The position numbers were made by a program, and so were the translations under genes. Positions 45,055 through 62,771 of a DNA stretch of 64,000 nucleotides are shown in pieces; the first letter of the stretch is position 1, and each line of letters starts with the position of its first letter. This DNA comes from Candidatus Zixiibacteriota bacterium (GTDB lineage: Bacteria > Zixibacteria > MSB-5A5 > UBA10806 > 4484-95). Below the pieces are notes generated by a model. That model saw nothing but the letters and a program-made list of their open reading frames with translations, had not been told where the DNA came from and searched no databases. The DNA is taken from contig JAGGSN010000206.1 of assembly GCA_021159005.1 (NCBI GenBank), positions 26,260 to 90,259 of the forward strand. Reading direction: 5' to 3'.

Positions 45055-45069
45055 TAGAGGAGGAATCAA

Positions 45070-46542
45070 GTGGATTTTCCAATACTTACTTTTTTAACCT
45101 TTTTCCCGCTTTTGGGCATGATAGCAGTAATGCTTTTGCCAAAAAACAGCGACCGTTCAGTCAAATGGACTGCCGTATTCTTTTCGTTTGTTCCTTTGGT
45201 TGCCTCCGTTTTTCTTGTAGCAAATTATGATTACACGGTTTCGACAATACAATTCATTGAAAGATACACTTGGTTTCCTCAGGTCAACATTAATTATTTT
45301 ATGGGTGCTGATGGTTTATCTGTGCCGATGCTGTTTCTAACAGCTTTACTATCATTTATATCGATAATAGTCTCGTTCGGCATCAAAGAGCGAGTGAAAG
45401 AGTATTTCGCCTGGTTTTTACTTTTAGAGGTTGGCATGATGGGCGTGTTTTGCGCGCTCGACTTTTTCCTTTTCTATTTATTCTGGGAAATCATGTTGGT
45501 GCCGATGTACTTTCTTATCGGTGTTTGGGGTGGTCCAAGACGAGAATATGCGGCTATTAAGTTCTTTTTATATACGTTATTTGGGTCGGTTTTCATGCTG
45601 ATTGGTATTCTGGCGTTGTATTTCACAACCGGCACGCTTGATATGATGGAATTAATAGCCAACAACTACCTGTATACACGCACTTTCCAGCTCTGGATTT
45701 TTGCCGCCTTCTTTATCGGTTTTGCAATTAAGGTTCCTGTCTGGCCGTTCCATACATGGCTTCCGGATGCTCACGTTGAGGCGCCAACCGCTGTTTCGGT
45801 GATTCTGGCTGGTATCCTTCTGAAAATGGGAACATACGGCATTCTGCGCATCAGCTATCCAATGTTTCCCGAGGCAACGGTTTATTTTGCGAAATGGATT
45901 GCGGTTTTGGGCATGATAGGCATTATATATGGCGCTTTAGTATCGATGGCACAGAAAGATTTGAAGAAGCTGGTGGCATATTCGTCGGTTTCGCACATGG
46001 GGTTTTGCTTACTGGGCATGGCCGCCATCAATACGGTGGGAATATCCGGCTGCTTATTTCAGATGTTTTCGCATGGCGTAATTACAGGCGCCCTATTTAT
46101 TTTAGTGGGCGTAATTTATGATAGAGCCCATACTCGTGAGATTGCCGCTTTCGGAGGGCTTGGCGCAAAGCTTCCGGTTTACACAGGCATATTCGTTTTG
46201 TTTGGCATGGCAGCGCTTGGCTTGCCAAGCATGTCCGGGTTTGTTTCCGAGTTTATGATATTTGTTGGTTCGTTTACCTCGGTATATGTTCCCACTTGGA
46301 TGGTTATAGTATCCGTGCTCGGCGTTATTTTGGGCGCTGCATATATTTTAAGGATGATTCAACATGTATTCCTGGGCAAGTTCAATACTCGCTGGGATGG
46401 TTTAACAGAGATCAACGGCCGCGAAATTTTCACTATAGTTCCGCTGGCAATATTAACTATTCTGATTGGCGTATATCCCACAAGCTTGAATATGTTTTTA
46501 AAGGCTACAGTGGAAAATCTGGTTAAGCTGATTATAGGTTAA
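45070..46542 (+). CDS. nuoM: Complex I subunit M
   Basis: FWEIMLVPMY, AIKVPVWPFHTWLPDAHVEAP, LLKMG and LVAYSSVSHMG. Confidence 0.96.
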   Translation: MDFPILTFLTFFPLLGMIAVMLLPKNSDRSVKWTAVFFSFVPLVASVFLVANYDYTVSTIQFIERYTWFPQVNINYFMGADGLSVPMLFLTALLSFISIIVSFGIKERVKEYFAWFLLLEVGMMGVFCALDFFLFYLFWEIMLVPMYFLIGVWGGPRREYAAIKFFLYTLFGSVFMLIGILALYFTTGTLDMMELIANNYLYTRTFQLWIFAAFFIGFAIKVPVWPFHTWLPDAHVEAPTAVSVILAGILLKMGTYGILRISYPMFPEATVYFAKWIAVLGMIGIIYGALVSMAQKDLKKLVAYSSVSHMGFCLLGMAAINTVGISGCLFQMFSHGVITGALFILVGVIYDRAHTREIAAFGGLGAKLPVYTGIFVLFGMAALGLPSMSGFVSEFMIFVGSFTSVYVPTWMVIVSVLGVILGAAYILRMIQHVFLGKFNTRWDGLTEINGREIFTIVPLAILTILIGVYPTSLNMFLKATVENLVKLIIG

Positions 46543-46548
46543 TAAGCT

Positions 46549-47151
46549 ATGTCGAGCCAGCAGAGGAAGAGAACCATTTTGGTTATCACTCATCTTTATC
46601 CGCGGTTTGAAGGCTGCACGATGGCTCCTTTTCTGGGAATATGGGCGGAAAATTTGGCTAAACAATATAATATGATAATACTGGTACCCCGTCACGAAAA
46701 GGCTTTGCCTGAAAGAAACGGTGTTAAGTTGGTATATTTTGGATATTTTTTTAAATCGTTAGAGAAATTTTCATATACATCAAGTCTTTTTGCCAAAGTA
46801 CGGAAATTTAATATATTGTATCAATTATTAGCAATATTTTATTTTATTAGCTACACCTACAAATGCCTGATTATCGCCAGAGACATGAAACCCGATATTA
46901 TTCATAGCCACTGGTTTGTCCCGGCTGGCTTAGTTGGCCATATAACATCCGTATTTACTGGCATACCCCATGTTGTTTCAGTATACAGCGATGGTTTTTT
47001 AATTAAAACAAATCCGATTTTACGTTTGGTTGCCCGGATAATTTTTAATCGGGCTAAATCGGTTATAGCCATATCGAAGTCAATCAAAGAATATGTTGAT
47101 TTAATTTATCCCGACGCCGAGGTTGTTTACCCATGCAATCGACTGTTTTAA
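46549..47151 (+). CDS. GT4-family glycosyltransferase, N-terminal (acceptor) domain only
   Basis: ILVITHLYP, MKPDIIHSHWFVPAG, GIPHVVSVY and VIAISKSIKE; stops right after EVVYP. Confidence 0.75.
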   Translation: MSSQQRKRTILVITHLYPRFEGCTMAPFLGIWAENLAKQYNMIILVPRHEKALPERNGVKLVYFGYFFKSLEKFSYTSSLFAKVRKFNILYQLLAIFYFISYTYKCLIIARDMKPDIIHSHWFVPAGLVGHITSVFTGIPHVVSVYSDGFLIKTNPILRLVARIIFNRAKSVIAISKSIKEYVDLIYPDAEVVYPCNRLF

Positions 47152-47690
47152 CCGTAGGGCGGTTAGTGCCGCGCAAAGGACAGATTTATCTTATAGATGC
47201 GATGCGTAAGCTAGTTGATGAGGGCATGGATTTGAAGCTGGTTATTATCGGTATTGGCCCCGAGGAAAACCGGCTGAGAGAAAGAGCCAAGGGCTTGGAT
47301 TTTCGCTTGGAACTTATTATAAGCGATGAACAGCTTGAACAAGAATATAAGAACGCCGATGTTTTCGTTCTGCCCTCGATTACAGATGAACAAGGCGAAA
47401 AAGAAGGCTTGGGGCTGGTGCTGTTAGAGTCGATGCATTTTAAACTGCCTGTAATAGCTTTCGATAATGGCGGCGTAAGCGAGGTTGTTATTGATGGCTA
47501 TAATGGCATTCTTCTTCAGGAAAAAGATGTCGATGGTTTAGCTGTCTCAATTAAGAAAGTTTTAACTGATAAAGAGTTCAGTGATAAACTTGTTGAAACG
47601 GCATATAAGGATGCGCATAAACGTTTTTCAGTCGAGACGATTGTTAATCAGCAGGCTGAAATATATGATAGAGTATTAGAGCACAGATAG
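47133..47690 (+). CDS. GT4-family glycosyltransferase, C-terminal (donor-binding) domain only
   Basis: VLTVGRLVPRKG, ADVFVLPS, EGLGLVLLE (EX7E) and PVIAFDNGGVSEVV; own ATG overlapping the upstream ORF by 19 nt. Confidence 0.85.
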   Translation: MQSTVLTVGRLVPRKGQIYLIDAMRKLVDEGMDLKLVIIGIGPEENRLRERAKGLDFRLELIISDEQLEQEYKNADVFVLPSITDEQGEKEGLGLVLLESMHFKLPVIAFDNGGVSEVVIDGYNGILLQEKDVDGLAVSIKKVLTDKEFSDKLVETAYKDAHKRFSVETIVNQQAEIYDRVLEHR

Positions 47691-47721
47691 ATTGCAATTG
47701 TAATAAAGGCAGGATGTTAAA

Positions 47722-49158
47722 ATGGACTTTGCAGATATTAATTTCAGACTGATAGCGCCGGAAGTATTTTTATTTTTATGGTCGTTATTGATTCTATTTC
47801 TCGGTATAAAAAAGCAGGATAAAAGCCCTCGAACATTGGGGATATTATCTATTATTGGATTGTTAGCAGCCTTAGCTCTTTCAATGAATACTTCAAGCGG
47901 CACTTTCTTCGGACAAACATTTATTGTCGATGATTATGCGCGAGCATTCAAGCTTATTTTTATCCTGTCAGCCGCGCTTACTATAATGGGTTCGATTGAT
48001 TACATCGCTAAAAGGCTGATTCACCAGGGCGAGTTTTTCTCCCTTCTATTATTATGCACAACTGGTATGATGTTTTTATCATCTGCAGGCGAGCTGATTT
48101 CAATGTATGTTGCCTTAGAACTGTCGACAATTTCTCTATATATTCTGGCGGCATACAGGAAGAAAGACTTAAAATCAACCGAAGCAGGCCTTAAATATCT
48201 GATTTTGGGAGCTGTCTCTTCCGGAATTTTACTATACGGACTTTCGCTTATCTATGGCTTGACCGGAACGACTGTCATGAGCGAAATCGGCAAACGTCTG
48301 TTCCTTGGCCCGGATACAAATCTGGCGACCTATTTTGCTATAATAATGTTTATGGCTGGCTTTGGGTTCAAGCTTGCCGCCGCGCCTTTCCATATGTGGG
48401 CACCGGATGTTTACGAGGGTGCGCCGACACCGGTTACTGCTTTCCTGTCGGTAGCATCAAAAGCCGCCGGTTTAACCGCTTTTGTAAGATTATTCTTCGA
48501 GTCGCTGTTAATTGCCAAATCCGAATGGGTGATTATCCTCGAGGTTGTAGCGATACTGGCAATGGTGATTGGTAATGTTGTTGCCCTTTTGCAGAAAAAT
48601 ATCAAGCGAATGCTGGCTTATTCATCAATTGCTCAGGTGGGGTATGTTTTAGTTGCTTTAGCGGCTGGAATTGATTTATCGGTTGGTTCCATGATGATAT
48701 TCTTAATTGCTTACCTGTTCGCTAATATTGGCGCTTTTATTATCGTGATTGCCTTTTCAAATGATACCGGTTCCGACCAGATTAAGGATTATTGCGGCCT
48801 TATGAAACGTTCGCCAGTTGCCGCAATTATTATGTCAATATTTATGCTCTCGCTGTCTGGTATACCACCAACAGCCGGTTTTTTCGCAAAGTACTGGCTT
48901 TTTGCCGCCGCCGTTAAAGAAGGCTTGTATTGGCTGGTTGTCATAGCTGTTATAACATCCGTAATATCGCTGTTTTATTATATGAATGTCGTTAGAGTAA
49001 TGATGTTTCATCAACCTGAAGAAAATACGGCCATTTCTCTTTCGGGTATGGTTAAGGTTAGCCTTGGCATAAGCGTTATAGTTGTTTTGATAATGTGCAT
49101 TATACCCGGCGTATTTTATAATTGGGCATTGAGTGCATCTACAATATTCAGATTTTAA
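47722..49158 (+). CDS. nuoN: Complex I subunit N
   Basis: ALELSTISLY, EAGLKYLILG, FKLAAAPFHMWAPDVYEGAP, NIKRMLAYSSIAQ and GIPPTAGFFAK. Confidence 0.96.
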   Translation: MDFADINFRLIAPEVFLFLWSLLILFLGIKKQDKSPRTLGILSIIGLLAALALSMNTSSGTFFGQTFIVDDYARAFKLIFILSAALTIMGSIDYIAKRLIHQGEFFSLLLLCTTGMMFLSSAGELISMYVALELSTISLYILAAYRKKDLKSTEAGLKYLILGAVSSGILLYGLSLIYGLTGTTVMSEIGKRLFLGPDTNLATYFAIIMFMAGFGFKLAAAPFHMWAPDVYEGAPTPVTAFLSVASKAAGLTAFVRLFFESLLIAKSEWVIILEVVAILAMVIGNVVALLQKNIKRMLAYSSIAQVGYVLVALAAGIDLSVGSMMIFLIAYLFANIGAFIIVIAFSNDTGSDQIKDYCGLMKRSPVAAIIMSIFMLSLSGIPPTAGFFAKYWLFAAAVKEGLYWLVVIAVITSVISLFYYMNVVRVMMFHQPEENTAISLSGMVKVSLGISVIVVLIMCIIPGVFYNWALSASTIFRF

Positions 49159-49440
49159 ACAGCTGTGATTTCAAGTTGTGTTAGTTCATAGCGGAATGAA
49201 AATTGACAGATGCAGAGCGGCAAATAAATTATAAAAATATTCGGAATTATATTGAACATTTAGCATTAATAGCACACCCCTAACCCCTCTCAAGAGAGGA
49301 ATAATAGCATAGAACTCAGACTGGGGGTCGTATGACCCAGACAGGTCGTAAAATCCAGAGGAGCCTACTGTCTCAGATATGCCGTATGACTGACTTATGA
49401 TGAACTAAACATTTTTGGGGAAATCCTTATCTCTTTCTTC

Positions 49441-49470
49441 TTGCTCTCAATATCATATTCCATATATAAT
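49441..49470 (+). promoter_or_regulatory. Sigma70-type promoter candidate for the DUF2723 gene
   Basis: TTGCTC-N18-TATAAT upstream of ATG 49505. Confidence 0.45.
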
Positions 49471-49504
49471 ATCAAATGATGAATAACGTTGATTCACCGG
49501 AAAT

Positions 49505-51511
49505 ATGATAATGAAAAAATATGCCGGCCTTATACCCGGACTAATAGCGCTGATAGTATATTATACAACTACCTGCCGTTCTATCTGGATTGGCGATTCG
49601 GGGGAATTTTCACTGGCTTTGAAAACTCTCGGTATTTGTCATCCTCCCGGCTATCCATTGTTTACGATACTTGGCAAATCATTCTTAATATTCACATCAT
49701 TTTTACGTCCAATGTATGCCGCCAATCTGTTTAATACGCTGATTGCAGCGGCGGTTGCAACAACAATATACTACCTTTTTAGACGTTATCTAAATCAATG
49801 GCCAGCGATGATATTGAGCCTGATATGGGCATTTACTCCGCTGTTTTGGTCTGAAACTGCCGGGGTTGAGATTTATACTTTCAATATGCTGTTAATTGCT
49901 TTAATCTTTCTGGCAATTGAAAGCAATCATAAAAGAAGATGGCTTATAATAGTCTATTTATTCGGTTTGGCAATGACTAATCATCCCTCCGCTTTGGCGA
50001 TTTTACCGGTATTAATCTACCTTTTTATAAAAGAAAAAATATATAAGCGATGGAATATATACCCTTATTTAATTTGCATACTCATTATTACCGGCAGTAT
50101 CTATTTGTACTTGCTGGTTCGCTCATCATGCGATCCGCTTTCCAACTGGGGAAATCCGAGTAATATTAAAGCGTTGATTCATCATATGACCTTAAGCCAA
50201 TACAGCGGCTGGTTGGGATACTCATGGGATAATATTTTAATTAGTATAAAGCTGTTTTTCATTTCGATTATTAAATCATGGTGGTGGATCGGGCTGGTAA
50301 TGTCGGTAATCGGAACAATTATCGGCCTAATAAAAAGCAGAACTCAAACCATCGGTGTCTTGTTAATGCTGGCGGCGCTATTGTTTTTATCGTCATCACT
50401 TCTGGAGGTCAATTATGAGCCGTATAATATTCCTGCATTATTTGCTGCTTTGCTGTTGATGAGCAATGTTTTCGTCTGGCTTGAAAGCTTTTCTTTGTCG
50501 TCGCTTGTGCGGTATAGCATATACTCAGCATGTTCAATTGCTTGTTTGATACTGCTTGTTATTAATTACAATACGCAGAACAAATCTGATTATACTCTTT
50601 ATGAGGATTACTCCAAATATATTCTCGATAGCGCCGAAAGCGGTATCTTGTTTACAGCCGGCGATATTAATTCTTTTGGTACGCTTTACTTGCGTTATGT
50701 TGAGGGCTATAGGAAGCAGGTAAAGGTATATGATCGTTCTATAAGGCTCAGCGCTCTTTTAAATGATGCTTCGCAGTTAACCGGCATTAAGTATACTGAT
50801 TATTACAATGCCAGGTTAGCCATAATAAATAACGCCGCTGAAAACAAGTATCTGGTTAAAAACCATTATGCTTATGAACCAGAGTGGCTGAATATTTCCG
50901 AACCATTTTATTCTTATGGGATTTTATATTCCATAAACAACAAGCAGGCTAATTCTCCAAATATTTCAAAATATCCGATTGATTATAAACCGGGGGATGT
51001 TTTATCGCGCCAATTGCTTGTTAATCTCGATCTTGCCCGAGGTGAGAAATGTTTAACCGAAGAACCATACGACACGACTGCCGCTTTTGCCGCCTTTAAC
51101 CTGGCTCTTAACCGCCTGGAAAATGAACCGAGGGCAGTGGTTTTAAACAACCTCGGCATTTATTTCCGAAGCGGCGGTTATCTGGAATTGGCTCATAGAA
51201 CATATATAAAAGCGCTTGAGAAACCGATAATTACAGCTTCCACACGGCAGGATATAACTTTTAATATCTCAAATCTCTATAAGGATAGAGGCAATAACCA
51301 TCTTGCTTCGAAAGACTATCATAACGCTATTGGCAGCTATATAAGGGCATTGAATTATGACCCTGATAATACTGACTTGATGCTTAACATCGGTCTGATT
51401 TTTAGTCAAATACTAAATGATACTGCTAATGCCTGTATCTATCTGGAAAAGTATCTTGATATAAAACCATCTGATACAAAAGTTCGCAACTTCTTAGATA
51501 AAATAAAATAA
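49505..51511 (+). CDS. DUF2723 / TMEM260-like GT-C membrane glycosyltransferase with C-terminal TPRs
   Basis: GDSGEF...LGICHPPGYPLF, AGVEIY, GLAMTNHP and SNWGNP, about 10 TM segments, then TPRs (ALNYDPDN). Confidence 0.8.
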   Translation: MIMKKYAGLIPGLIALIVYYTTTCRSIWIGDSGEFSLALKTLGICHPPGYPLFTILGKSFLIFTSFLRPMYAANLFNTLIAAAVATTIYYLFRRYLNQWPAMILSLIWAFTPLFWSETAGVEIYTFNMLLIALIFLAIESNHKRRWLIIVYLFGLAMTNHPSALAILPVLIYLFIKEKIYKRWNIYPYLICILIITGSIYLYLLVRSSCDPLSNWGNPSNIKALIHHMTLSQYSGWLGYSWDNILISIKLFFISIIKSWWWIGLVMSVIGTIIGLIKSRTQTIGVLLMLAALLFLSSSLLEVNYEPYNIPALFAALLLMSNVFVWLESFSLSSLVRYSIYSACSIACLILLVINYNTQNKSDYTLYEDYSKYILDSAESGILFTAGDINSFGTLYLRYVEGYRKQVKVYDRSIRLSALLNDASQLTGIKYTDYYNARLAIINNAAENKYLVKNHYAYEPEWLNISEPFYSYGILYSINNKQANSPNISKYPIDYKPGDVLSRQLLVNLDLARGEKCLTEEPYDTTAAFAAFNLALNRLENEPRAVVLNNLGIYFRSGGYLELAHRTYIKALEKPIITASTRQDITFNISNLYKDRGNNHLASKDYHNAIGSYIRALNYDPDNTDLMLNIGLIFSQILNDTANACIYLEKYLDIKPSDTKVRNFLDKIK

Positions 51512-51574
51512 AAGCAAACGATAGATTTTAGAAAATACCCCTTCCGGTAAAAGGGGTTTGAAAGTGTTTTTATT

Positions 51575-51604
51575 ATAGAGGGAAATAACAATATTTCCCT
51601 CTAT
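51575..51604. terminator. Bidirectional terminator between convergent genes
   Basis: Perfect 13-bp stem atagagggaaata / tatttccctctat. Confidence 0.7.
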
Positions 51605-51649
51605 TAATCTTTGCTTAGTTTGGGTTGCCTTCTAAGCTCTCCAAATACT

Positions 51650-54600
51650 CTATTTTAGTAATACGAGTTTTTTAATGCTTACATTTTGGATTTCATTATT
51701 TGATTTAAGCTTGGCGAAATAAATTCCCGAGGCTGTATTCTTGCCAGCGTCGTTAATTCCGTTCCAGCTTATATAATGATAACCAGCCTTGAGCTGACCG
51801 GAAGCAAGTTCCTTAACTAATCGACCGCTGATATCGTAGATATTTAAAGTAACATTATCGGCAACAGGAAGCGCAAACTCAATTGTGGTTGTCGGATTAA
51901 ATGGATTAGGATAACAACATACAATACTGAATTGTTCCGGCAGCGGAACTTCGCGTTTAAGCAAAGTATTAATCAGACAGCCATTACCATCAGAAAATGA
52001 CATAAGAGATGGCGTAAGCTTAACGCCCTTAGGCAGCATCATTCTCATAAGTTCGGTGGTTCCGGATTGTATTACTTTGCTTTCGAGATCATAAACGCAT
52101 AAGCGCATTGACTCATCGTATTGCTTAAGTTCAACTTCCATATCAAGGTCGTTGTTTAATTGTAGATTGCAATCAATGTCTTCCGAAATCGGCAATTCGA
52201 GGAGCAAACCGCCAATATTAAATTCGGAGTTGAATTTAATAATGGTCTCGTCATTTTCATTTTGCTCGATAATAAGTTCAACTGGCCTGGTTTCAACCGG
52301 TACTAATTTCGGGTTGCTGTTACTGCCATTTACCACATTAATCATAAAAATTAAGTCAGCTACTGTTGCCCTATAGCCGTCTTGGTTAACATCGGATGCC
52401 CACATCTGGTTTTCGGTAAATGGATAACCGATAGGATCGATAAGGTGGTTTGCCATAGTCATAGCATCACCTAATTCGAATGGGTAGCGATTCATATTTA
52501 TATCGCCGATAATAGGATTACAATCGTCCAATACTCGTACCGAACCGCAATAGAGATTTAGCAGGAATGTTCCAAACTGGCTGCTGTCGGGAGCATCACT
52601 GCAGCCATCGCCATACCAGACATGATACCCTGTTGAATCGGCAACAGCATTATCATTGATACTTTCTTCATGAAAGAAACAAATCGGTATGCTGATGTCA
52701 TCCGGGTATTCCTGCGGAACCAGCAAGAATTGCAAGTTTAATATTGGTTCATTGGGATCGATATCGCACAACGGTCCATGATAAACCTGATCGTTTAGAT
52801 CAGCTATATAACTAAACTTGATAGTACCAGGGCCAAAAATATCATACGTAAAGTGATTATACTCATTGCCAAAATCGAGATTTTCAGTAATCAATGCGTT
52901 TTGCAATACTAACACTGATGGATCCCAGTGAATCACCATCGTTAAGCCGCCGATACACACGCAATCATACGTATTAAGATAAATACCGACAGTTCCTGAT
53001 AGACCCGGCGCAATCATCACATCTTCATCTATGTAGTAATCAATATAGCCAAGAATAGTAAGATTGTAGCCGATGTTATCATCGCAAATTCCATCACAGG
53101 CGGTTATAACTACATCGAATTCCATATGCTCGCCGCAGGCAGAATCAGGTACCGTGAAACAGTAAACGCCAAGCCAATATCCCGGTTCATCCACTAATGT
53201 TGTGATTTCTCCATAGTTAGCGGTAACGACAATATAGTCGCCGTCGACATCTATAGCCTCCAGAGTATCGCAGAAGTTTTCGTATATACACATTACGGTA
53301 AGCGAGTCATTTAAGAATTCGGGACAATTTTCGATTTCAATATCTATCAGAGTAGTGCAGACGCTAACTTCACCGCAGTCATCAATGGCCGTAAGAATGA
53401 TTGTATTTATTCCGGTATCAGGTAAGAAGCAGACCATCTCTTCATTCGGATAGAATATACCAATGTTGGAAAACGCTGTATCAAGGTTATCTTCATAATC
53501 GTGTACATAGAATTCTGACAGACAAACAGTATCAATACTGCCCAATCTTATCTGATCATCCGGAGGACAATTTACCAGCGGAGGAGTATTGAGATTTATT
53601 GTTACGTCTGTTGTGCAAACAGCCGCAAGTCCGCAATCATCGATAACAGTAAGTATAAGGGTATTTAATCCCTCAACTGGAGTAAAGCATACCGTACTGC
53701 CGACGATAGTGCCTGTATTGACATTAACGTTATTGATGTTGTTATCAACATCGTTATAGTTGAAACCTGAAATACATAGCTCGCTCAAGTCGCATACCGC
53801 TATGGTTGTATCATCAACGCAGGTTACCTCGGGAGCGCTATTTACAGTTACAGTGATATTCACAGTTGTCGAACGCGATTTATTTGCGGCACAAACAGCT
53901 CCGCATTCATCCTCGCATTCGAATACAGCGGAATAAACACCCGAACCTGAAGTTGTAAAAGTCCAATTTGAACCGTCAAAATTACCATCGCCGCCCGGAA
54001 GCATTGAACAGCCAACGAGATTATCATCCTCATCGGCTGCCGAAACAGGGAAGCTGAATGTGGAATCGAAGCAGATGAAGTAGCTATTATCATCCGGCAT
54101 GCTGCATTCAGGCGGGCTGTTGTAATCGACAGTAATTTCGAGCGTATCTATGCAGGTCTCTCCGCAAGCATCCTCACATTCGAATATTCCCGTATAAACA
54201 CCTTCGCTGTCAGTTGTGAAAGTCCAGGTTGAGCCGTCAAAACTACCCGGACCGGATGTCTTAGAACAGCCAACGAGGTTATTATCAATATCGGTTGCCG
54301 AGATAGCAAAACCGAATGTAGTGTCATCACAAACAAAGAATGATTGGTTATCAGGGATATCGCATACTGGAGGAGTATTGTAGTTAATTATTATAGTAAT
54401 GCTATCGGCGCAGGTTTCGCCGCATTCATCCTCGCATTCAAATATCGCCGAGAAAGCCCCCTGACCGGTTGTATTGAATGTCCAACTGGAACCGTCAAAA
54501 TTACCATCGCCCAGAACTTTAATGCAGCCGCTCAGGTTATCGTCATCATCGACGGCTGTAATCGGGATGCTGAATGTTGTATCATCGCAGACAAGATAGG

Positions 54601-57600
54601 AGGCATCATCAGGCACCTGACACACAGGCGCATCATTAAGGTCAATCGTCATGTTGACAGTACCGATACAAGATTCACCGCCAGCATCTTCACATTCGAA
54701 TGATGCCCAGTAAATGCCGGAGCCTGAAGTAGTAAATGTCCAATTAGTACCGTCATAGCTGCCCATACCACCGGTAAGAGTACAGCCAACTAAATCGCTG
54801 TCATCATCGGTTGCATAAACAGGGAAGCTAAAAGTCGAGTCGTTACATATAAAGAAATAAGCATCATCCGGCAAGTGACATTCGGGAGCATTGTTCATTG
54901 TAATTGTTATATTAACAGTGCCCGAGCAAGCAGCGCCGCACTCATCGGTACATTCGAAAGCAGCGGAATATATACCCGAGCTTGTTGCCGTGAAAGTCCA
55001 CGTCGAACCATCGAAACTGCCAGCTCCCGAAATCATTGAACAACCAACGAGATTGTCATCAACATCAGTTGCTGATACAGGGTAGCTGAAAGTTGAATCA
55101 CCATAAATATGATGGCTTTCATCAGATGGCAGATTGCAAACCGGATCGCTATTAAGAGATATCGTTATATTCGTGGCACATTGATCAACTTCACTACAAG
55201 CATCAGTAACGGTATAAGTTATCGTATTAAGTCCTATTGAAGGTGTAAAGCATACCGAATTGCCGGTTAGAGTGCCATTATCGACCACAATCGATGTTAT
55301 GTTATCGTCAGCATCGCTGGCCGTAAAGCCCGGCAAGCATATCTCATTCAAATCACAAACAAACATCGAGGTGTCATTCGGACATGAGGCTGACGGCGGA
55401 CTGTTAAGCACTGCCGTAACATTAACCGTACACTCATCTGTCTCATTACAAGAATCCGTTACCGTATAAGTTATCGTGTTCAAACCAGCAACCGGAGTAA
55501 AACATACCGTGCCATTATCCAGAACACCTAAATCAACCTCCGTTGATAAAATATTATCATCAGGGTCGCTGGCGCTGAATCCGGATAGACAAATATCACT
55601 CAGGTCGCAGACAAACAACGATGTATCATTCGGACACGATGCTGACGGCGGACTGTTTAATACTATGCCTATTACCGCATCACAGGTATCAGCCTCGCCG
55701 CAATCATCAATTGCCACCAGTTTGATAGTGTTATTGCCCTCCACCGGCGTGAAACATATCGAATTGCCAACCAGCGTTCCGCCTATCGCACTGCACGAGG
55801 CAAGGTTGCCATCAGGGTCGCTGCATGAGAAGCCCGATATGCAAATCTCATCTAAAACACAAACAAAGATTGTCGTGTCGGCAAATCCGGGGCGGGCATC
55901 CCACGGACAGGAAGCTTCCGGCGGGCTGTTGACTGTTACCGTAACGTTAACCGTGCAGTCATCATAATCGCCGCAGGCATCCGTTACCGTGTAGGTTATC
56001 GCGTTAAGACCCGCTGTCGGTGTGAAACATACTGTACCGGCATTCAACGTGCCATTATCGACAACCTCCGAGGTGATATTGCCATCTGCATCACTGGAAC
56101 TAAAGCCCGGCAGGCAGATATCGCTTAAATCACAGGCAAATATCGAGGTATCATTCGGACATGACGCCGCCGGCGGACTATTCAGGGTTACCGTAACATT
56201 AGTAACGCATTGATCTGTTTCGCCGCAGGCATCGGTTACCGTGTAGGTAATCGTGTTAAGACCCGCTGCCGGTGTGAAACAAACCGTGCCGGCATCCAAA
56301 GTACCTAAGCTGACAGTTCTTGAAGTTATATTATTATCAGCATCACTGTCAGAAAATCCCGGTATGCAGATACTGCTTAAGCTGCAAACAGCTAAAGTAG
56401 TATCATTCGGACATGCTGCCACCGGAGCGCTATTTTGAATTACCGTAACATTAGTTTCGCATGTATCGGTTTCGCCGCATTCATCGGCAGCAACCAACTT
56501 GATAGTATTTAAGCCTTCAACAGGGGTGAAATGAACAATATTACCGCTTAATGTGCCGCCTATAACTTCGCAGTTATCGAGATTGCCATCAGGGTCACTA
56601 CATGTGAATCCCGGCAAATAAATATCATGAATATTACATACGAATATTGTCGAATCGCCAGGACATTCGGCAGTTGGCGGATTATTAACATTTACAGTAA
56701 TATCAGTAGAACAGGTATCTGCTTCGCCGCATTCATCGGTTACGATAAACATAATAGTATTTAAACCCTCTGTTGGAATAAAGCAGGCGGATGTGCCATT
56801 TAGAGTGCCGAAACTTACGCTCTTTGAGATGATATTATCATCAACATCGCTGCTAACGAAACCTGATAAACATATTTCGCTAAGATCGCAAACTAACATA
56901 GTTGTGTCATCGGGGCAGGCGGCTATCGGCGGGCTATTTAATGTTACATTAACCGTTCGGCTCAAAGTATCAGCTTCGCCGCATTCATCAAGAGCAACCA
57001 ATTCGATTACATTGATTCCCTCAACCGGCGTGAAACAGATTGCATCACCGCTTAAGGTTCCACCTATTGCTTCGCAAGACAAGAGGTTGTTATCGGGATC
57101 AGTGCATGAAAATCCACCTAAACATATTTCATCAAGCTCGCAAACAAACAATAATGTATCACCTGCTCCGGGTCTTCCGCCGCCCCATGTGCAGTTAGCT
57201 GATGGCGGGCTGTTTAAAGTAATGCTAATATTAGTTGTGCAAGTATCGCTTTCGCCGCAAGCATCGGTAACGATATAGTTGATAGTATTTAGCCCTGCCG
57301 TTGGATCGAAGCATACCGAATTGCCGGTTAGAGTGCCATTATCGACCACAATCGATGTTATGTTATCGTCAGCATCGCTGGCCGTAAAGCCCGGCAAGCA
57401 TATCTCATTCAAATCACAAACAAACATCGAGGTGTCATTCGGACATGAGGCTGACGGCGGACTGTTAAGCACTGCCGTAACATTAACCGTACACTCATCT
57501 GTCTCATTACAAGAATCCGTTACCGTATAAGTTATCGTGTTCAAACCAGCAACCGGAGTAAAACATACCGTGCCATTATCCAGAACACCTAAATCAACCT

Positions 57601-60600
57601 CCGTTGATAAAATATTATCATCAGGGTCGCTGGCGCTGAATCCGGATAGACAAATATCACTCAGGTCGCAGACAAACAACGATGTATCATTCGGACACGA
57701 TGCTGACGGCGGACTGTTTAATACTATGCCTATTACCGCATCACAGGTATCAGCCTCGCCGCAATCATCAATTGCCACCAGTTTGATAGTGTTATTGCCC
57801 TCCACCGGCGTGAAACATATCGAATTGCCAACCAGCGTTCCGCCTATCGCACTGCACGAGGCAAGGTTGCCATCAGGGTCGCTGCATGAGAAGCCCGATA
57901 TGCAAATCTCATCTAAAACACAAACAAAGATTGTCGTGTCGGCAAATCCGGGGCGGGCATCCCACGGACAGGAAGCTTCCGGCGGGCTGTTGACTGTTAC
58001 CGTAACGTTAACCGTGCAGTCATCATAATCGCCGCAGGCATCCGTTACCGTGTAGGTTATCGCGTTAAGACCCGCTGTCGGTGTGAAACATACTGTACCG
58101 GCATTCAACGTGCCATTATCGACAACCTCCGAGGTGATATTGCCATCTGCATCACTGGAACTAAAGCCCGGCAGGCAGATATCGCTTAAATCACAGGCAA
58201 ATATCGAGGTATCATTCGGACATGACGCCGCCGGCGGACTATTCAGGGTTACCGTAACATTAGTAACGCATTGATCTGTTTCGCCGCAGGCATCGGTTAC
58301 CGTGTAGGTAATCGTGTTAAGACCCGCTGCCGGTGTGAAACAAACCGTGCCAGTAGTTAATGTGCCGTTATCCACTACCTTAGAAGTAATATTATCATCA
58401 GCGTCGCTGGCGGTAAAGCCGGCAAGACAAATCTGGTCAAGAGTACAGACAAATATCGAGGTATCATTCGGGCATGAGGCAGCCGGCGCGCTATTATAAT
58501 CAACGGTAATACTCACGGTTTCTGAACATGTTTCGCCGCATTCATCCTCACACTCAAACACTGCGGAATAAATACCGGCTCCGGTTGATGTGAAGCTCCA
58601 GGTTGAGCCGTCAAAGCTGCCATCACCGGATGTTTTTGCGCAGCCGTCAAGATTGTTGTCAACATCACTGGCCGAGATTGAGAAACTAAAGGCAGAGTCG
58701 CCGCAAACTAAATAAGTCTCATCATCAGGGACGATGCAAACCGGCGCGCTGTTGTAATTGACTGTAATATTGACCATGCCATAACATGTGGCGCCGCCTA
58801 TATCCTCACATTCGAATTCGGCAGTATATACACCCGGACCAGTTGTCGTGAATGTCCAAACCGTATCAACCAATGTGCCTGGTCCTGAAGTCTTAGTACA
58901 GCCAACCAAGTTTTCATCATCATCGGTCGCCGAAACTATGAAGCTAAAAGTAGTATCATCGCAGACAAAATATGTGGAATCATCAGGCAGATTACAAACC
59001 GGGGCGCTATTGTAGTTTACTGTAATATTTAATGTGCCGGAACATGAGGCGCCGCAATCATCCGTACATTCGAATGTTGCCGAATATACACCTTGACCGG
59101 AAGTGGTGAAAGTCCAATCAGAACCATCGAAACTGCCGACCCCGCTTGTTTTAGCACAGCCATCTAAGTTGCCGTCAGCATCAGTAGCCGAAACGGGGAA
59201 GCTGAAAGTTGTATCGCCAAAAACAAGAAAAGTTGTATCATTTGGTATATCGCAAACAGGGGCAGTATTAAAAGTGATATTAACATTTGTTTGGCAAGAA
59301 TCGATTTCACCGCATTCATCAGCTACAATAAGCTTAAGCGTGTTATTGCCGGATGCTGGAGTAAAGCATATTGAATTGCCGTTTAAGGTACCGCCAACAG
59401 CAGTAGCCGAGGCAATATTGTTATCGGTATCCGAATAGGAAAATCCCGGTAAGCAGATTTCACTGTCATCACAAACAAACAGCGATGTATCATTCGGACA
59501 TGAAACCACCGGCGCGCTATTTAGAGCGACTGCAACATCTGTTGTGCATTGGTCTGTCTCGCCGCATTCATCGGTTACAGTTAAGGCGATTGTATTTAGA
59601 CCCTCAGCAGGTGTAAAACAGACTGTTCCGTTATCGAGAACACCCAAGGATACATTTACGGATGATATATTATCATCATTATCGCTGACGTTGAAACCGG
59701 GCAGGCAAAGCTCGTTTAAATCGCAAACAAACAGCGAAGTATCACCAGGACAAGCTGCCGATGGCGCGCTGTTTAATCCGACATTTACGGTTCTGGTAAG
59801 AGTATCTGCCTCGCCGCATTCATCTAAGGCAACTAACTTAATGGTGTTAATTCCCTCTGAAGGCGTAAAACAGATAGAATTGCCGTCTAATGTACCGCCG
59901 ATTGCGGTGCAGGAAGCCAGGTTGTCATCGGGATCGGTGCACGAGAAACCGGACAAACAGATATCATTAAGATTGCAGACAAATACTGTCGTATCCCCTA
60001 CGCCCGGTTTAGAACCGCCCCATGTGCAGTTAGCTGAAGGCGGGCTGTTAAGAGTGATATTAACATCGGTTTCACAAACAACGCTATCGCCGCACTCATC
60101 AACTGCAGTAAGAGTAATAGTGTTTAATCCGGCAGCTGGCGTAAAGCAGACAGTTCCATTATCGTAAGTCCCAAGGCTAACATCAATTGAATTTATATTA
60201 TCATCATTATCACTTACCGTAAACCCGGGCAAGCATATTTCGCTTAGATCACATACGAATAATGAAGTGTCATTCGGACAGCTTACTTGAGGCGGGCTAT
60301 TTAAGGAAACTGTTACGTCAGTGCTGCATTCGGCAGAATCGCCGCAAGCATCAATAACAGTAAAGGTAATAGTATTTAATCCCACAGTCGGAGTAAAACA
60401 AACCGTATTACAGTTTAAGGTACCGATACTAACAATTTGTGATACTATGTTATTATCAGGATCACTAGCGTTAAAACCGGTCAAACATATCTCGTCCAAA
60501 TCACACATAAACAGCGAAGTATCATCAGGGCATGAAGCTTGGGGCGGCCTGTTTAAAATAACTCGTACGTCGATTATACACGTATCAGCTAAACCGCAAT

Positions 60601-62257
60601 CATCCGTTGCGATAAATTTGATATAATTCAGTCCCACAACAGGCGTAATGCATACGGAATCTCCGCTCAATGTGCCGCCGATTGCTTCACAGGATGCCAG
60701 ATTATCATCGGGATCGGTACAGTAAAATCCGGGTATGCATATTTCGCTTAAATCGCAGACAAAGTATGTAGTATCACATTTGGCGCCCCAAGGGCAATGA
60801 GCCACAGGCGGGTGATTCACACATACTGGAAAAGCATGATGGGCGCCGGGACCGGCTGATGGCGGACTCGAGACCGCTACCTGTCCATCGGATGCAGTTA
60901 CATAGTACTGGATGCTGTCAGTGCCGCATTCAAGCTCGCTGGCTGGCACATCGCAACAATAGACACTGTCAGTTCGTGTCATATTAACAGAGGTAAAGCT
61001 GGCTATATATGAATTGCGATAAAAGAGTTTTACATCCAAATCTTCCTGAGGAGTATCCAAATCAGTTACATAGGCGCAGATTTCAACATCTGTACCCCAC
61101 TGCTGGCATGTATTGTCAAGGTTTACAGTTTCCGGTGTCCTAACAATTTCCGGAGTTGCGGATTCTTGGCATGAACTTGAATCGCAATGATTGCAAGCTC
61201 CGAACTCATCCATACGACATACTGTCATAGTATGCCAATCGCCGTTCTGAATGGTATCCGGGCTATCATAGCAAATATAATACCGGCTGCACATGCGGTA
61301 CTTAATATCTTCATAAATAAATTCAATATCATCACCGGTAGGAGCATGATAATATGAACCGCCGGTAGCCGCTGAAATATGAATAAGGTATTGCGGGTCA
61401 AAACTGCTGCCAAGACTGATAGTATAAACAGGTATACCCGATGTGTTTGCCAAATCGCATATTATAGTTGAGTCGTCCTCCCAGCCATCGGGGTCAGGCG
61501 TACCATGCTGCCACCACCAATATGGAGGCGGACCAATCCAGAGACCATCCGGAGTTTCCGAACCGCCGCATAACTGGCTATAGTTCTCCATACCGTCAGA
61601 AATAGCAATTACGGCCTTGCTGCCTAATTCGGTAGTAGTAAGCTCTACGCCTTTCCATATACCGTCAAAAACCGCAGTCCAACCGCCAGAGGTTATAGAA
61701 TTGATTTTTGAATGTAAAAGGGTTTTATCGCTGGTAAAATCCTGAACAACATTAAAACAATTGCCGAATGTAACAATCGCTACTCTATCATAAATATCCA
61801 TTTCATCAACAAAAGTGTTCGCCGCGGCTTTAGCGGCATTCATCTTACTGCTGCCCATACTGCCGCTAACATCGATAACAAGGCATACCGAGCTTATGCA
61901 TGAATCAAGGTTCATTTCCTCAACAGTAAATGACCCCGGAGCAATAGGGCTGTCATCTTGAAAAACACAAAAACTATCAGCAACTAAGCCGCTTATAGGA
62001 TTTCCAAGTGAATCAAGCACATCAACATAGGCGCAGATGTAAGGAAACGCTCCGCAATCAAGCTGTGATATTATTACAGTGTCAGTCGGAGTACAATAAG
62101 TGGAAGGCAAATAATCGGGATAATTATTTCTTTCACCAAGTGTTATGCCCCCATAATATGGATCATCCGGTTGATTAATATCATTTGGATCTGCAAATGC
62201 TGATATTGTTAACATCAGCGGGAAAACAATGACAAGGTACATTAACAATTTTTTCAT
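51650..62257 (-). CDS. Giant secreted protein (~3535 aa): vWA, 29 Cys-rich cadherin-like repeats, cohesin-like, dockerin-like, FlgD-Ig/T9SS-like C-terminus
   Basis: ATG 62257 with GGAG RBS and signal peptide; MIDAS DVSGS...SDG; repeats starting NxPP/NxAP with DxD; GDINMN...ASDVNQDG; YPNPFNPTTTI...IYDISGRLV...SGIYF. Confidence 0.85.
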   Translation of the reverse strand: MKKLLMYLVIVFPLMLTISAFADPNDINQPDDPYYGGITLGERNNYPDYLPSTYCTPTDTVIISQLDCGAFPYICAYVDVLDSLGNPISGLVADSFCVFQDDSPIAPGSFTVEEMNLDSCISSVCLVIDVSGSMGSSKMNAAKAAANTFVDEMDIYDRVAIVTFGNCFNVVQDFTSDKTLLHSKINSITSGGWTAVFDGIWKGVELTTTELGSKAVIAISDGMENYSQLCGGSETPDGLWIGPPPYWWWQHGTPDPDGWEDDSTIICDLANTSGIPVYTISLGSSFDPQYLIHISAATGGSYYHAPTGDDIEFIYEDIKYRMCSRYYICYDSPDTIQNGDWHTMTVCRMDEFGACNHCDSSSCQESATPEIVRTPETVNLDNTCQQWGTDVEICAYVTDLDTPQEDLDVKLFYRNSYIASFTSVNMTRTDSVYCCDVPASELECGTDSIQYYVTASDGQVAVSSPPSAGPGAHHAFPVCVNHPPVAHCPWGAKCDTTYFVCDLSEICIPGFYCTDPDDNLASCEAIGGTLSGDSVCITPVVGLNYIKFIATDDCGLADTCIIDVRVILNRPPQASCPDDTSLFMCDLDEICLTGFNASDPDNNIVSQIVSIGTLNCNTVCFTPTVGLNTITFTVIDACGDSAECSTDVTVSLNSPPQVSCPNDTSLFVCDLSEICLPGFTVSDNDDNINSIDVSLGTYDNGTVCFTPAAGLNTITLTAVDECGDSVVCETDVNITLNSPPSANCTWGGSKPGVGDTTVFVCNLNDICLSGFSCTDPDDNLASCTAIGGTLDGNSICFTPSEGINTIKLVALDECGEADTLTRTVNVGLNSAPSAACPGDTSLFVCDLNELCLPGFNVSDNDDNISSVNVSLGVLDNGTVCFTPAEGLNTIALTVTDECGETDQCTTDVAVALNSAPVVSCPNDTSLFVCDDSEICLPGFSYSDTDNNIASATAVGGTLNGNSICFTPASGNNTLKLIVADECGEIDSCQTNVNITFNTAPVCDIPNDTTFLVFGDTTFSFPVSATDADGNLDGCAKTSGVGSFDGSDWTFTTSGQGVYSATFECTDDCGASCSGTLNITVNYNSAPVCNLPDDSTYFVCDDTTFSFIVSATDDDENLVGCTKTSGPGTLVDTVWTFTTTGPGVYTAEFECEDIGGATCYGMVNITVNYNSAPVCIVPDDETYLVCGDSAFSFSISASDVDNNLDGCAKTSGDGSFDGSTWSFTSTGAGIYSAVFECEDECGETCSETVSITVDYNSAPAASCPNDTSIFVCTLDQICLAGFTASDADDNITSKVVDNGTLTTGTVCFTPAAGLNTITYTVTDACGETDQCVTNVTVTLNSPPAASCPNDTSIFACDLSDICLPGFSSSDADGNITSEVVDNGTLNAGTVCFTPTAGLNAITYTVTDACGDYDDCTVNVTVTVNSPPEASCPWDARPGFADTTIFVCVLDEICISGFSCSDPDGNLASCSAIGGTLVGNSICFTPVEGNNTIKLVAIDDCGEADTCDAVIGIVLNSPPSASCPNDTSLFVCDLSDICLSGFSASDPDDNILSTEVDLGVLDNGTVCFTPVAGLNTITYTVTDSCNETDECTVNVTAVLNSPPSASCPNDTSMFVCDLNEICLPGFTASDADDNITSIVVDNGTLTGNSVCFDPTAGLNTINYIVTDACGESDTCTTNISITLNSPPSANCTWGGGRPGAGDTLLFVCELDEICLGGFSCTDPDNNLLSCEAIGGTLSGDAICFTPVEGINVIELVALDECGEADTLSRTVNVTLNSPPIAACPDDTTMLVCDLSEICLSGFVSSDVDDNIISKSVSFGTLNGTSACFIPTEGLNTIMFIVTDECGEADTCSTDITVNVNNPPTAECPGDSTIFVCNIHDIYLPGFTCSDPDGNLDNCEVIGGTLSGNIVHFTPVEGLNTIKLVAADECGETDTCETNVTVIQNSAPVAACPNDTTLAVCSLSSICIPGFSDSDADNNITSRTVSLGTLDAGTVCFTPAAGLNTITYTVTDACGETDQCVTNVTVTLNSPPAASCPNDTSIFACDLSDICLPGFSSSDADGNITSEVVDNGTLNAGTVCFTPTAGLNAITYTVTDACGDYDDCTVNVTVTVNSPPEASCPWDARPGFADTTIFVCVLDEICISGFSCSDPDGNLASCSAIGGTLVGNSICFTPVEGNNTIKLVAIDDCGEADTCDAVIGIVLNSPPSASCPNDTSLFVCDLSDICLSGFSASDPDDNILSTEVDLGVLDNGTVCFTPVAGLNTITYTVTDSCNETDECTVNVTAVLNSPPSASCPNDTSMFVCDLNEICLPGFTASDADDNITSIVVDNGTLTGNSVCFTPSIGLNTITYTVTDACSEVDQCATNITISLNSDPVCNLPSDESHHIYGDSTFSYPVSATDVDDNLVGCSMISGAGSFDGSTWTFTATSSGIYSAAFECTDECGAACSGTVNITITMNNAPECHLPDDAYFFICNDSTFSFPVYATDDDSDLVGCTLTGGMGSYDGTNWTFTTSGSGIYWASFECEDAGGESCIGTVNMTIDLNDAPVCQVPDDASYLVCDDTTFSIPITAVDDDDNLSGCIKVLGDGNFDGSSWTFNTTGQGAFSAIFECEDECGETCADSITIIINYNTPPVCDIPDNQSFFVCDDTTFGFAISATDIDNNLVGCSKTSGPGSFDGSTWTFTTDSEGVYTGIFECEDACGETCIDTLEITVDYNSPPECSMPDDNSYFICFDSTFSFPVSAADEDDNLVGCSMLPGGDGNFDGSNWTFTTSGSGVYSAVFECEDECGAVCAANKSRSTTVNITVTVNSAPEVTCVDDTTIAVCDLSELCISGFNYNDVDNNINNVNVNTGTIVGSTVCFTPVEGLNTLILTVIDDCGLAAVCTTDVTINLNTPPLVNCPPDDQIRLGSIDTVCLSEFYVHDYEDNLDTAFSNIGIFYPNEEMVCFLPDTGINTIILTAIDDCGEVSVCTTLIDIEIENCPEFLNDSLTVMCIYENFCDTLEAIDVDGDYIVVTANYGEITTLVDEPGYWLGVYCFTVPDSACGEHMEFDVVITACDGICDDNIGYNLTILGYIDYYIDEDVMIAPGLSGTVGIYLNTYDCVCIGGLTMVIHWDPSVLVLQNALITENLDFGNEYNHFTYDIFGPGTIKFSYIADLNDQVYHGPLCDIDPNEPILNLQFLLVPQEYPDDISIPICFFHEESINDNAVADSTGYHVWYGDGCSDAPDSSQFGTFLLNLYCGSVRVLDDCNPIIGDINMNRYPFELGDAMTMANHLIDPIGYPFTENQMWASDVNQDGYRATVADLIFMINVVNGSNSNPKLVPVETRPVELIIEQNENDETIIKFNSEFNIGGLLLELPISEDIDCNLQLNNDLDMEVELKQYDESMRLCVYDLESKVIQSGTTELMRMMLPKGVKLTPSLMSFSDGNGCLINTLLKREVPLPEQFSIVCCYPNPFNPTTTIEFALPVADNVTLNIYDISGRLVKELASGQLKAGYHYISWNGINDAGKNTASGIYFAKLKSNNEIQNVSIKKLVLLK
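55248..56290. repeat. 1043-bp internal direct repeat, copy 1
   Basis: Appears identical to 57309-58351 (offset 2061); shadow ORFs in both copies translate identically. Confidence 0.85.
57309..58351. repeat. 1043-bp internal direct repeat, copy 2
   Basis: See 55248-56290. Confidence 0.85.
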
Positions 62258-62771
62258 AGCCGCTCTCCAACTCCATTTATTGTAATATTTTTTTATCTTA
62301 GTATTTGAAAAATGACTTTTAAGTCTCCAGTTTATATGCTTAAATTTCAACTAAACGGTAATTATTGAACCCCTAATTTTAAAATATTTAACATTTTCAT
62401 TATAATTTGTAATAATCGAGCTGATATTCATGATTTTATATAATAGACTATACAATGATAATAAAGCGACTATATATCTGTATAATGATGGTAAAAATAT
62501 TGAAAACTTTCCTGCAATCGACAGAATAATTTTATTGACATAACACAAACAAATACAAAACACTAAATATAAATTCCCTAAACCTTAAAGGTTCGGTTAA
62601 AAATTTATTATTTTAATTTTCTTTGCCTTGGGGAATGCCAATGCTTTGCTTTGACATACCTGATTCCAGAAGAACCCCAAGAAGTTACAACAATTTTACT
62701 AAGCCAATACCAATATAAACAACGCAAATATACATGTCAAGTAATATTTTTGTTTGACGATAGAAAAAAAT

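Follow-up and report, generated by a model that had tools for sequence, protein, structure and literature searches.

This study investigated two neighboring, convergent genes in a 64,000-nucleotide stretch of DNA (the window), which forms part of contig C1 of a Zixibacteria metagenome-assembled genome of 3.66 Mb that is 97% complete. One gene (49505-51511, + strand) encodes P0001, a TMEM260-like (DUF2723) glycosyltransferase of 668 aa, and the other (51650-62257, - strand) encodes P0002, a giant secreted protein of approximately 3535 aa that ends in a type IX secretion system (T9SS) sorting domain. The results revealed that the adjacency of the two genes does not mark an enzyme-substrate pair and that they are most likely neighbors by accident. 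The explanation that we favor, with a probability of roughly 0.55, is that P0001 and P0002 belong to unrelated transcription units that a rearrangement peculiar to this genome has joined, P0001 being a stand-alone TMEM260-like GT-C enzyme and P0002 a T9SS-exported protein of the adhesin type.

Human TMEM260 is a protein O-mannosyltransferase whose acceptors are IPT domains in plexins, cMET, and RON (PDB 9RQL, 9RQM, and 9RQN; PF11028), and TMTC1-4 are O-mannosyltransferases for cadherin domains that combine a GT-C part with tetratricopeptide repeats (TPRs). On the basis of this analogy, an earlier note on the same DNA proposed that the enzyme lies beside its own substrate. Conservation of the neighborhood had been set beforehand as the test of this proposal, and the proposal failed it. 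For the enzyme gene, we analyzed 22 ortholog loci in public genomes of Zixibacteria and LCP-89 with flanks of up to 10 kb. The repeat family of P0002 was absent from all 22 loci, no giant open reading frame (ORF) adjoined the enzyme gene at any of them (0/22), and a protein with a T9SS type A C-terminal sorting domain (CTD) was a direct neighbor at only two of them. Homologs of the VWA-bearing N-terminus of the giant protein (44-54% identity) were identified in four genomes (G026, G031, G040, and G028), and no DUF2723 gene was located within approximately 10 kb of any of these loci (0/4). The 10 other genomes that carry both genes held them on different contigs in every case (0/10 adjacent), several of these contigs being longer than 180 kb.

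The flanking genes of the enzyme in relatives also differed. P0001 orthologs with 45-64% identity were present in five relatives (G001, G006, G033, G037, and G026), in which the flanks consisted of MetRS and CBM9/DUF5916, a 367-aa SGL-CTD protein and UDG, GNAT and radical-SAM, nitroreductase and SDR, and Omp85/PD40 and HolB; neighbors at further ortholog loci included ClpB, MutS, a MurA-like gene, and an OPT transporter. The genome of the same genus (G001), whose enzyme is 64% identical to P0001, and a genome of the same family (G006) both retained the enzyme and did not carry the giant. In these two genomes (G001, locus L119 on contig C11; G006, locus L120 on contig C22), a shared five-gene block was located downstream of nuoN, whereas the matched genes of this block were located on contig C51 in the genome under study. 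Accordingly, the nuoN-P0001-giant junction is a rearrangement peculiar to the studied genome. At least 110 ORFs in this genome end in a CTD (of approximately 2,737 genes; approximately 4% of the genes and 6.5% of the DNA), and 41 ORFs are longer than 1200 aa. As a chance level, 4.0% of the genes carry a CTD, 5.8% have a CTD gene as a direct neighbor, and 2.3% adjoin an ORF of at least 1200 aa. The local rearrangement, together with this high density of secreted giant proteins, accounts for a pairing that is unique to one genome.

The convergent spacer between the two genes is 138 bp in length (51512-51649) and contains hairpin sites resembling terminators on both strands, one at 51575-51604 (+) with 13 pairs and one at 51557-51537 (-) with nine pairs. 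These sites indicate that P0001 and P0002 are separate transcription units, in agreement with the caveat that the earlier note had itself attached to its proposal.

P0001 matched the TMEM260-like model PF11028 with an E value of 2.3e-22 (80.1 bits; cut-off, 24.2) and the PMT_2 model with an E value of 1.4e-10 (42 bits), and several TPR models matched its C-terminus. We employed a profile of six P0001 orthologs to search for structural relatives and obtained human TMEM260 chain 9rql_A with an E value of 6e-26 (as well as 9rqm and 9rqn); profile positions 26-423 were aligned with chain residues 37-467, comprising the whole transmembrane (TM) and Rossmann-like region. These findings establish the DUF2723-plus-TPR assignment of the earlier note and reveal that P0001 is a true member of the TMEM260-like family.

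For P0001, an AlphaFold2 model based on 20 orthologs (predicted local distance difference test score [pLDDT], 89.5; predicted TM score [pTM], 0.87) comprised three parts. The GT-C transmembrane module (residues 1-358; 49505-50578, +) has 11 TM helices and includes Y233; D31 and H46 are located in its first periplasmic loop. It is followed by a Rossmann-like alpha/beta domain with a five-stranded sheet (residues 365-477; 50597-50935, +), which carries D387 in an AGDINSF motif, and by a TPR domain of nine helices (residues 499-667; 50999-51505, +). The TPR domain is presumed to be the acceptor-binding part, and seven of its positions were conserved among the orthologs (N590, K593, D594, N597, D619, N622, and N628). 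Because the first helix is N-in and the helices number 11, the lobe formed by the Rossmann-like and TPR domains should face the periplasm, an orientation that we infer from the model. A Foldseek search of the PDB with this model returned the GT-C enzymes PglB, ArnT, STT3, and ALG12 as the best full-length matches; the PDB set searched (to 2026-04-08) lacks 9RQL-9RQN, and TMEM260 was compared by means of the profile search and its published account. According to a cryo-electron microscopy preprint, TMEM260 has a GT-C part of 11 helices in the membrane, a Rossmann-like domain on the luminal side, and a TPR domain, the latter two of which bind and activate the peptide acceptor (10.64898/2026.03.17.711096). 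Set against this description, the model of P0001 has the same three-part plan.

The functional residues reported for TMEM260 are D52 and H67 of the sugar-recognition motif, R264 and Y267 of the donor loop, R355 in TM10, and the catalytic base D441 (10.64898/2026.03.17.711096). The hidden Markov model (HMM) alignment revealed that four of these six residues were kept in P0001, in which D31 corresponds to D52, H46 to H67, Y233 to Y267, and D387 to D441, and all four were invariant across the 20 orthologs. The sugar-recognition motif reads IGD31SGEF...H46PPGYPLF in P0001 and GGD52SGEL...H67PPGYPLF in TMEM260, and the catalytic-base motif reads AGD387INSF and RGD441LPGN, respectively. The equivalents of D31 and H46 were present in all four DUF2723 paralogs of the genome. 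Family membership, architecture, and conserved residues are shown directly, as is the absence of synteny. Candidate donor synthases were identified elsewhere in the genome, namely two GT2 proteins of the GtrB/ArnC/PgfS type, matched over their full length, and two Dpm1/AglJ-like proteins; ORFs for such GtrB/Dpm1-like synthases are located on contigs C217 (255-1199), C4 (67133-68131), and C92 (9379-10119).

P0001 differs from TMEM260 in having nine rather than five TPR helices and in its lipid carrier, which would be a bacterial polyprenyl phosphate instead of dolichyl phosphate. The comparison with TMTC1-4 is similar in part: P0001 shares with them a PMT_2-type GT-C core and a non-cytoplasmic TPR part, and the repeats of P0002 resemble cadherin and PKD domains, but P0001 scored 80 bits against the TMEM260-like model and 42 bits against PMT_2. 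No TMTC structure or sequence was present among the profile and fold matches of P0001. A Rossmann-like domain inserted between membrane part and TPRs has been presented as the distinctive architecture of TMEM260 (10.64898/2026.03.17.711096), and P0001 carries a domain of this type, which would set it apart from the TMTC enzymes.

The open frame of P0002 extends to a TTG at 62350 (51650-62350, -), and the most likely start is an ATG at 62257 with GGAG ahead of it. From the N-terminus onward, the protein comprises a putative signal peptide, MKKLLMYLVIVFPLMLTISAFA (62192-62257, -), recognized by eye from the pattern of the translation; a von Willebrand factor A (VWA) domain at residues 155-342 (61325-61888, -; VWA_2, E 4e-12; VWA, E 8e-11); 29 tandem Cys-rich PKD/cadherin-like Ig repeats at residues 512-3005 (53336-60817, -; Big_9, E 2e-39), delimited by splitting and alignment; and the CTD (51689-51913, -), which was matched by TIGR04183 (36.1 bits; cut-off, 23), PF18962, and FlgD_ig. 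The segment of approximately 470 residues that separates the last repeat from the CTD (residues approximately 3005-3480; 51653-53341, -) had no Pfam match; a dockerin-like D-x-N-x-D-G pattern was observed in this stretch (DVNQDGYRATVADL). The genome also encodes a homolog of the SprA translocon (SprA_N, E 6e-35), and P0002 therefore has the features of a T9SS type A cargo protein: the signal peptide seen by eye, the CTD, and T9SS machinery in the same genome. For a genome of 3.7 Mb, the repertoire of CTD-bearing and secreted proteins is unusually large.

The repeat region matched the families Big_9, Bact_surface_Ig-like, Cadherin_5, and HYR. It was resolved into exactly 29 units of two types, one of 84-92 aa and one of 86 aa, each unit carrying five or six Cys residues and a conserved D-x-D-x-N motif; single units span, for example, residues 1114-1199, 1454-1544, and 1545-1628. 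The AlphaFold2 model of one unit was an all-beta sandwich (pLDDT, 96.1), and the nearest solved structures were the PKD-like domains of the collagenases ColH and ColG, the PKD domains of AAVR, the cadherin-like SraP modules, and EC domains of cadherins, with TM scores of up to 0.75. The convergent gene with 29 beta-rich, Ig/cadherin-like repeats was therefore described correctly in the earlier note. An HMM of the repeat units detected the repeat family in no other ORF of the genome. We also observed an exact 1043-bp internal duplication within the array (55248-56290 identical to 57309-58351; spanning 55248-58351, -), which is in frame at an offset of 2061 bp and renders repeats r11-r13 identical to r19-r21; it stems either from a segmental duplication of very recent date or from the assembly. 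Judged from its domains, P0002 is predicted to be a giant disulfide-rich surface protein of the adhesin type, exported by the T9SS and composed of a VWA domain, 29 calcium-type PKD/cadherin-like repeats, and a CTD. It shares the signal peptide, the arrays of Ig-like repeats, and the type A CTD with the giant T9SS adhesins of the Fibrobacterota-Chlorobiota-Bacteroidota (FCB) group, such as SprB-type proteins and Big/cadherin-like repeat proteins, and differs from them in its N-terminal VWA domain, the unusual Cys richness of its repeats (5-6 Cys in each), and the alternation of two repeat subtypes.

The repeats had been described as full of Thr/Ser and N-x-S/T. The enrichment was real but modest: Ser and Thr made up 21.5% of the repeat residues, the values being 12.1% for a proteome proxy and 14.7% for the remaining CTD proteins of the genome, and 62 N-x-S/T motifs were counted compared with 37 +/- 5 in shuffled sequences, an excess that arises because the motifs recur in homologous repeats (NDTS, DDNITS, LNTIT, and NVTV), so that the counts are not independent. 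The repeats contained no mucin-like or serine-rich repeat protein-like Ser/Thr tracts; instead, these residues were located in beta-strands and spread through folded beta-sandwich units. More striking than Ser and Thr were Asp, Asn, and above all Cys, which at 7.2% was 5.7 times as frequent as in the proteome. N-glycosylation of the N-x-S/T and D/E-x-N-x-S/T sites was considered and rejected, since no STT3/PglB gene (PF02516) was found in the 97%-complete genome, which leaves the N-x-S/T sites without an evident N-glycosylation enzyme. The acceptor sequon of TMEM260 is P-x5-P-x3-G-P-x2-[GA]-G-G-x2-[TS] (10.64898/2026.03.17.711096), and neither its full nor its relaxed form had a match in P0002 or in any other ORF of the genome. 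Because the repeats are PKD/cadherin-like rather than IPT, the analogy with TMEM260 acting on IPT domains is a loose one.

A 2025 review of O-glycosylation in Bacteroidota suggests that enzymes resembling those of O-mannosylation should be sought (PMC12871550). Zixibacteria likewise have a T9SS and many cargo proteins that transit the periplasm, and Bacteroides thetaiotaomicron, which was used as a control, also has a PF11028 gene. In contrast, the O-glycosylation motif of Bacteroidota, D(S/T)(A/I/L/V/M/T), was not enriched in the P0002 repeats, in which it occurred 29 times compared with 23 +/- 4 in shuffled sequences.

Several features of the wider enzyme family and of the locus were observed in addition. 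Most relatives without a P0001-type ortholog (G014, G019, G005, and others) carried a DUF2723 protein of approximately 735 aa instead, which was approximately 31% identical to P0001 over nearly the full length, including the C-terminal lobe. The two types looked nearly mutually exclusive among the 41 genomes searched and may be divergent functional equivalents. The 812-aa DUF2723 paralog on contig C8 was located in an apparent operon (43724-51045, outside the window) that comprises a methyltransferase, the DUF2723 gene, a GT4 gene, a flippase-like LPG_synthase_TM gene, and two GT2 genes. In one Zixibacteria family, seven loci (L046, L047, L048, L051, L056, L058, and L061) shared a conserved block around the P0001 ortholog, in the order of a MurA-like gene (EPSP_synthase family, 419 aa), an Omp85/PD40/peptidase-MA gene (approximately 1040 aa), a gene on the opposite strand for a protein of approximately 230 aa without a Pfam match, and DUF2723, with a HolB-like gene next in most of the seven. 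This block may link the P0001-type enzyme to outer-membrane biogenesis. Within the window, a GT4 glycosyltransferase gene between nuoM and nuoN was split into two overlapping ORFs (46549-47151 and 47133-47690, +), one matching Glyco_transf_4 and the other Glycos_transf_1. Co-transcription of P0001 with the upstream nuo operon or with this split gene was considered and rejected, because the nuoN-P0001 junction was not conserved in G001 and G006 and a 346-bp spacer contains promoter-like sites.

Four observations weigh against the favored explanation of a TMEM260-like enzyme placed beside an adhesin-type protein by rearrangement. A literature search yielded no described function or experiment for any bacterial DUF2723 protein. 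By alignment alone, L230 and P306 of P0001 take the places of the TMEM260 residues R264 and R355, and both were invariant in the orthologs, which suggests that P0001 belongs to a divergent subtype in which the donor or its binding may differ; the paralogs on contigs C8 and C65 retain the R264-equivalent arginine in the motif LERKQYG. The lost arginines may be made up for by a different basic residue, for which the conserved R206, R25, and H227 are candidates. The third observation is the co-occurrence of the two genes. A survey of 151 Zixibacteria genomes revealed PF11028 in all 151 (1-8 copies), P0001-type orthologs in 15, and homologs of the giant, 1,900-4,800 aa in length, in 43; 11 genomes held both genes, yielding a raw association of 11/15 compared with 32/136 (P 2e-4). 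However, 10 of these 11 genomes belong to one family. Outside this family the proportions were 1/4 and 31/134 (P 1.0), and the association at the genus level had a P value of 0.16. The co-occurrence, which the earlier note had named as a check on its proposal, is therefore attributable to a single family. Finally, three of the four DUF2723 paralogs in this genome were no more than two genes away from a CTD gene (post hoc P 0.0045). A link of the DUF2723 family as a whole with T9SS cargo was accordingly considered, and it was rejected after it was not replicated over 64 DUF2723 genes of relatives, in which CTD genes accounted for 4.3% of the positions at +/-1 and 2.1% of those farther away (P 0.13-0.18).

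These observations were weighed together with three other explanations. It is very improbable that P0001 specifically O-glycosylates the PKD/cadherin-like repeats of P0002 and that the adjacency reflects this relationship. The genes are directly adjacent and convergent, the products would meet in the periplasm if the enzyme lobe faces it as modeled and the giant follows its signal peptide and T9SS tail, the repeats contain conserved Ser/Thr positions (DTS/DTT, FTP, and NTIT, for example), and the raw phyletic association is strong. Nevertheless, the adjacency recurred at none of the ortholog loci, giant-homolog loci, or other genomes with both genes; the same-genus genome keeps its enzyme without the giant, 32 genomes hold giant homologs without a P0001 ortholog, and the TPR domain is highly conserved in orthologs from genomes that lack the giant. 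The absence of the TMEM260 sequon from the repeats, the loss of the association beyond one family, and the two separately terminated transcription units likewise argue against a dedicated relationship. The second explanation is broader: P0001, alone or with its paralogs, would be a periplasmic protein O-glycosyltransferase of wide specificity for Sec-exported or T9SS-bound proteins, with the giant as one of many substrates and its adjacency incidental. The universal and multi-copy distribution of the family in the phylum, the housekeeping-type neighbors of the P0001 orthologs, the conservation of the catalytic base and the TPR domain, and the presence of 110 CTD cargo proteins and a SprA homolog are consistent with this explanation. 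In addition, the initiating transferase of the related Bacteroidota O-glycosylation is still unidentified (PMC12871550), and for this reason the idea remains worth testing. By contrast, the Bacteroidota motif is not enriched in the repeats, the patchy distribution of the P0001 subtype fits a specialized role better, and P0001 lacks the two donor-binding arginines that the C8 and C65 paralogs keep. The P0001 locus itself adds no specific evidence for this broader explanation, and we consider it tenable but unlikely.

The third explanation is that P0001 takes its sugar from a lipid carrier and passes it to a glycolipid, lipopolysaccharide or lipid A, or an envelope polysaccharide, in the manner of ArnT and many other bacterial GT-C enzymes. 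The best fold matches include ArnT (TMt 0.55-0.58), the gene cluster of the C8 paralog resembles one for glycan assembly, and the replaced donor-site arginines would suit such a function. The likeness to ArnT is nevertheless limited to the shared GT-C core, whereas the kinship to TMEM260 extends over the whole length of the sequence, and the Rossmann-like domain with its D441-equivalent and the TPR domain are features that serve the peptide acceptor in TMEM260. We therefore regard a non-protein acceptor as rather improbable.

On the favored explanation, P0001 is probably a stand-alone, constitutive, periplasm-facing GT-C O-glycosyltransferase of the TMEM260 type. By homology with TMEM260, its 11-helix membrane module would bind a polyprenyl-phosphate sugar at the periplasmic face through D31, H46, and Y233. 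In the periplasm, the lobe of TPR and Rossmann-like domains would grip an extended, newly exported polypeptide, and D387 would then activate a Ser/Thr hydroxyl, to which a single sugar would be transferred. We infer the donor type and the protein nature of the acceptor from this analogy, by which an exported polypeptide is the most likely acceptor; the acceptors of P0001 are not defined by the neighboring gene. A more far-reaching and decidedly tentative idea is that the TMEM260-like enzymes of Zixibacteria O-glycosylate extended exported chains as they enter the periplasm, with T9SS cargo, including this giant, among the substrates. They would then constitute a prokaryotic counterpart of the domain-specific O-mannosylation of metazoans and would be candidates for the missing initiating enzyme of the FCB group, and the P0001 subtype might use a lipid-linked sugar different from that of its paralogs.

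A conserved enzyme-substrate locus would be a valuable handle on the bacterial TMEM260-like family, and the clean negative result of the synteny analysis removes this locus, which is not of that kind, as a lead. What has been gained is a confident model and a residue map for a bacterial subfamily in which two donor-binding arginines, kept by the paralogs, are replaced, as well as the finding that the TMEM260-like family is universal and multi-copy in Zixibacteria. These findings suggest that the function of bacterial DUF2723 proteins is better approached from loci with conserved partners.

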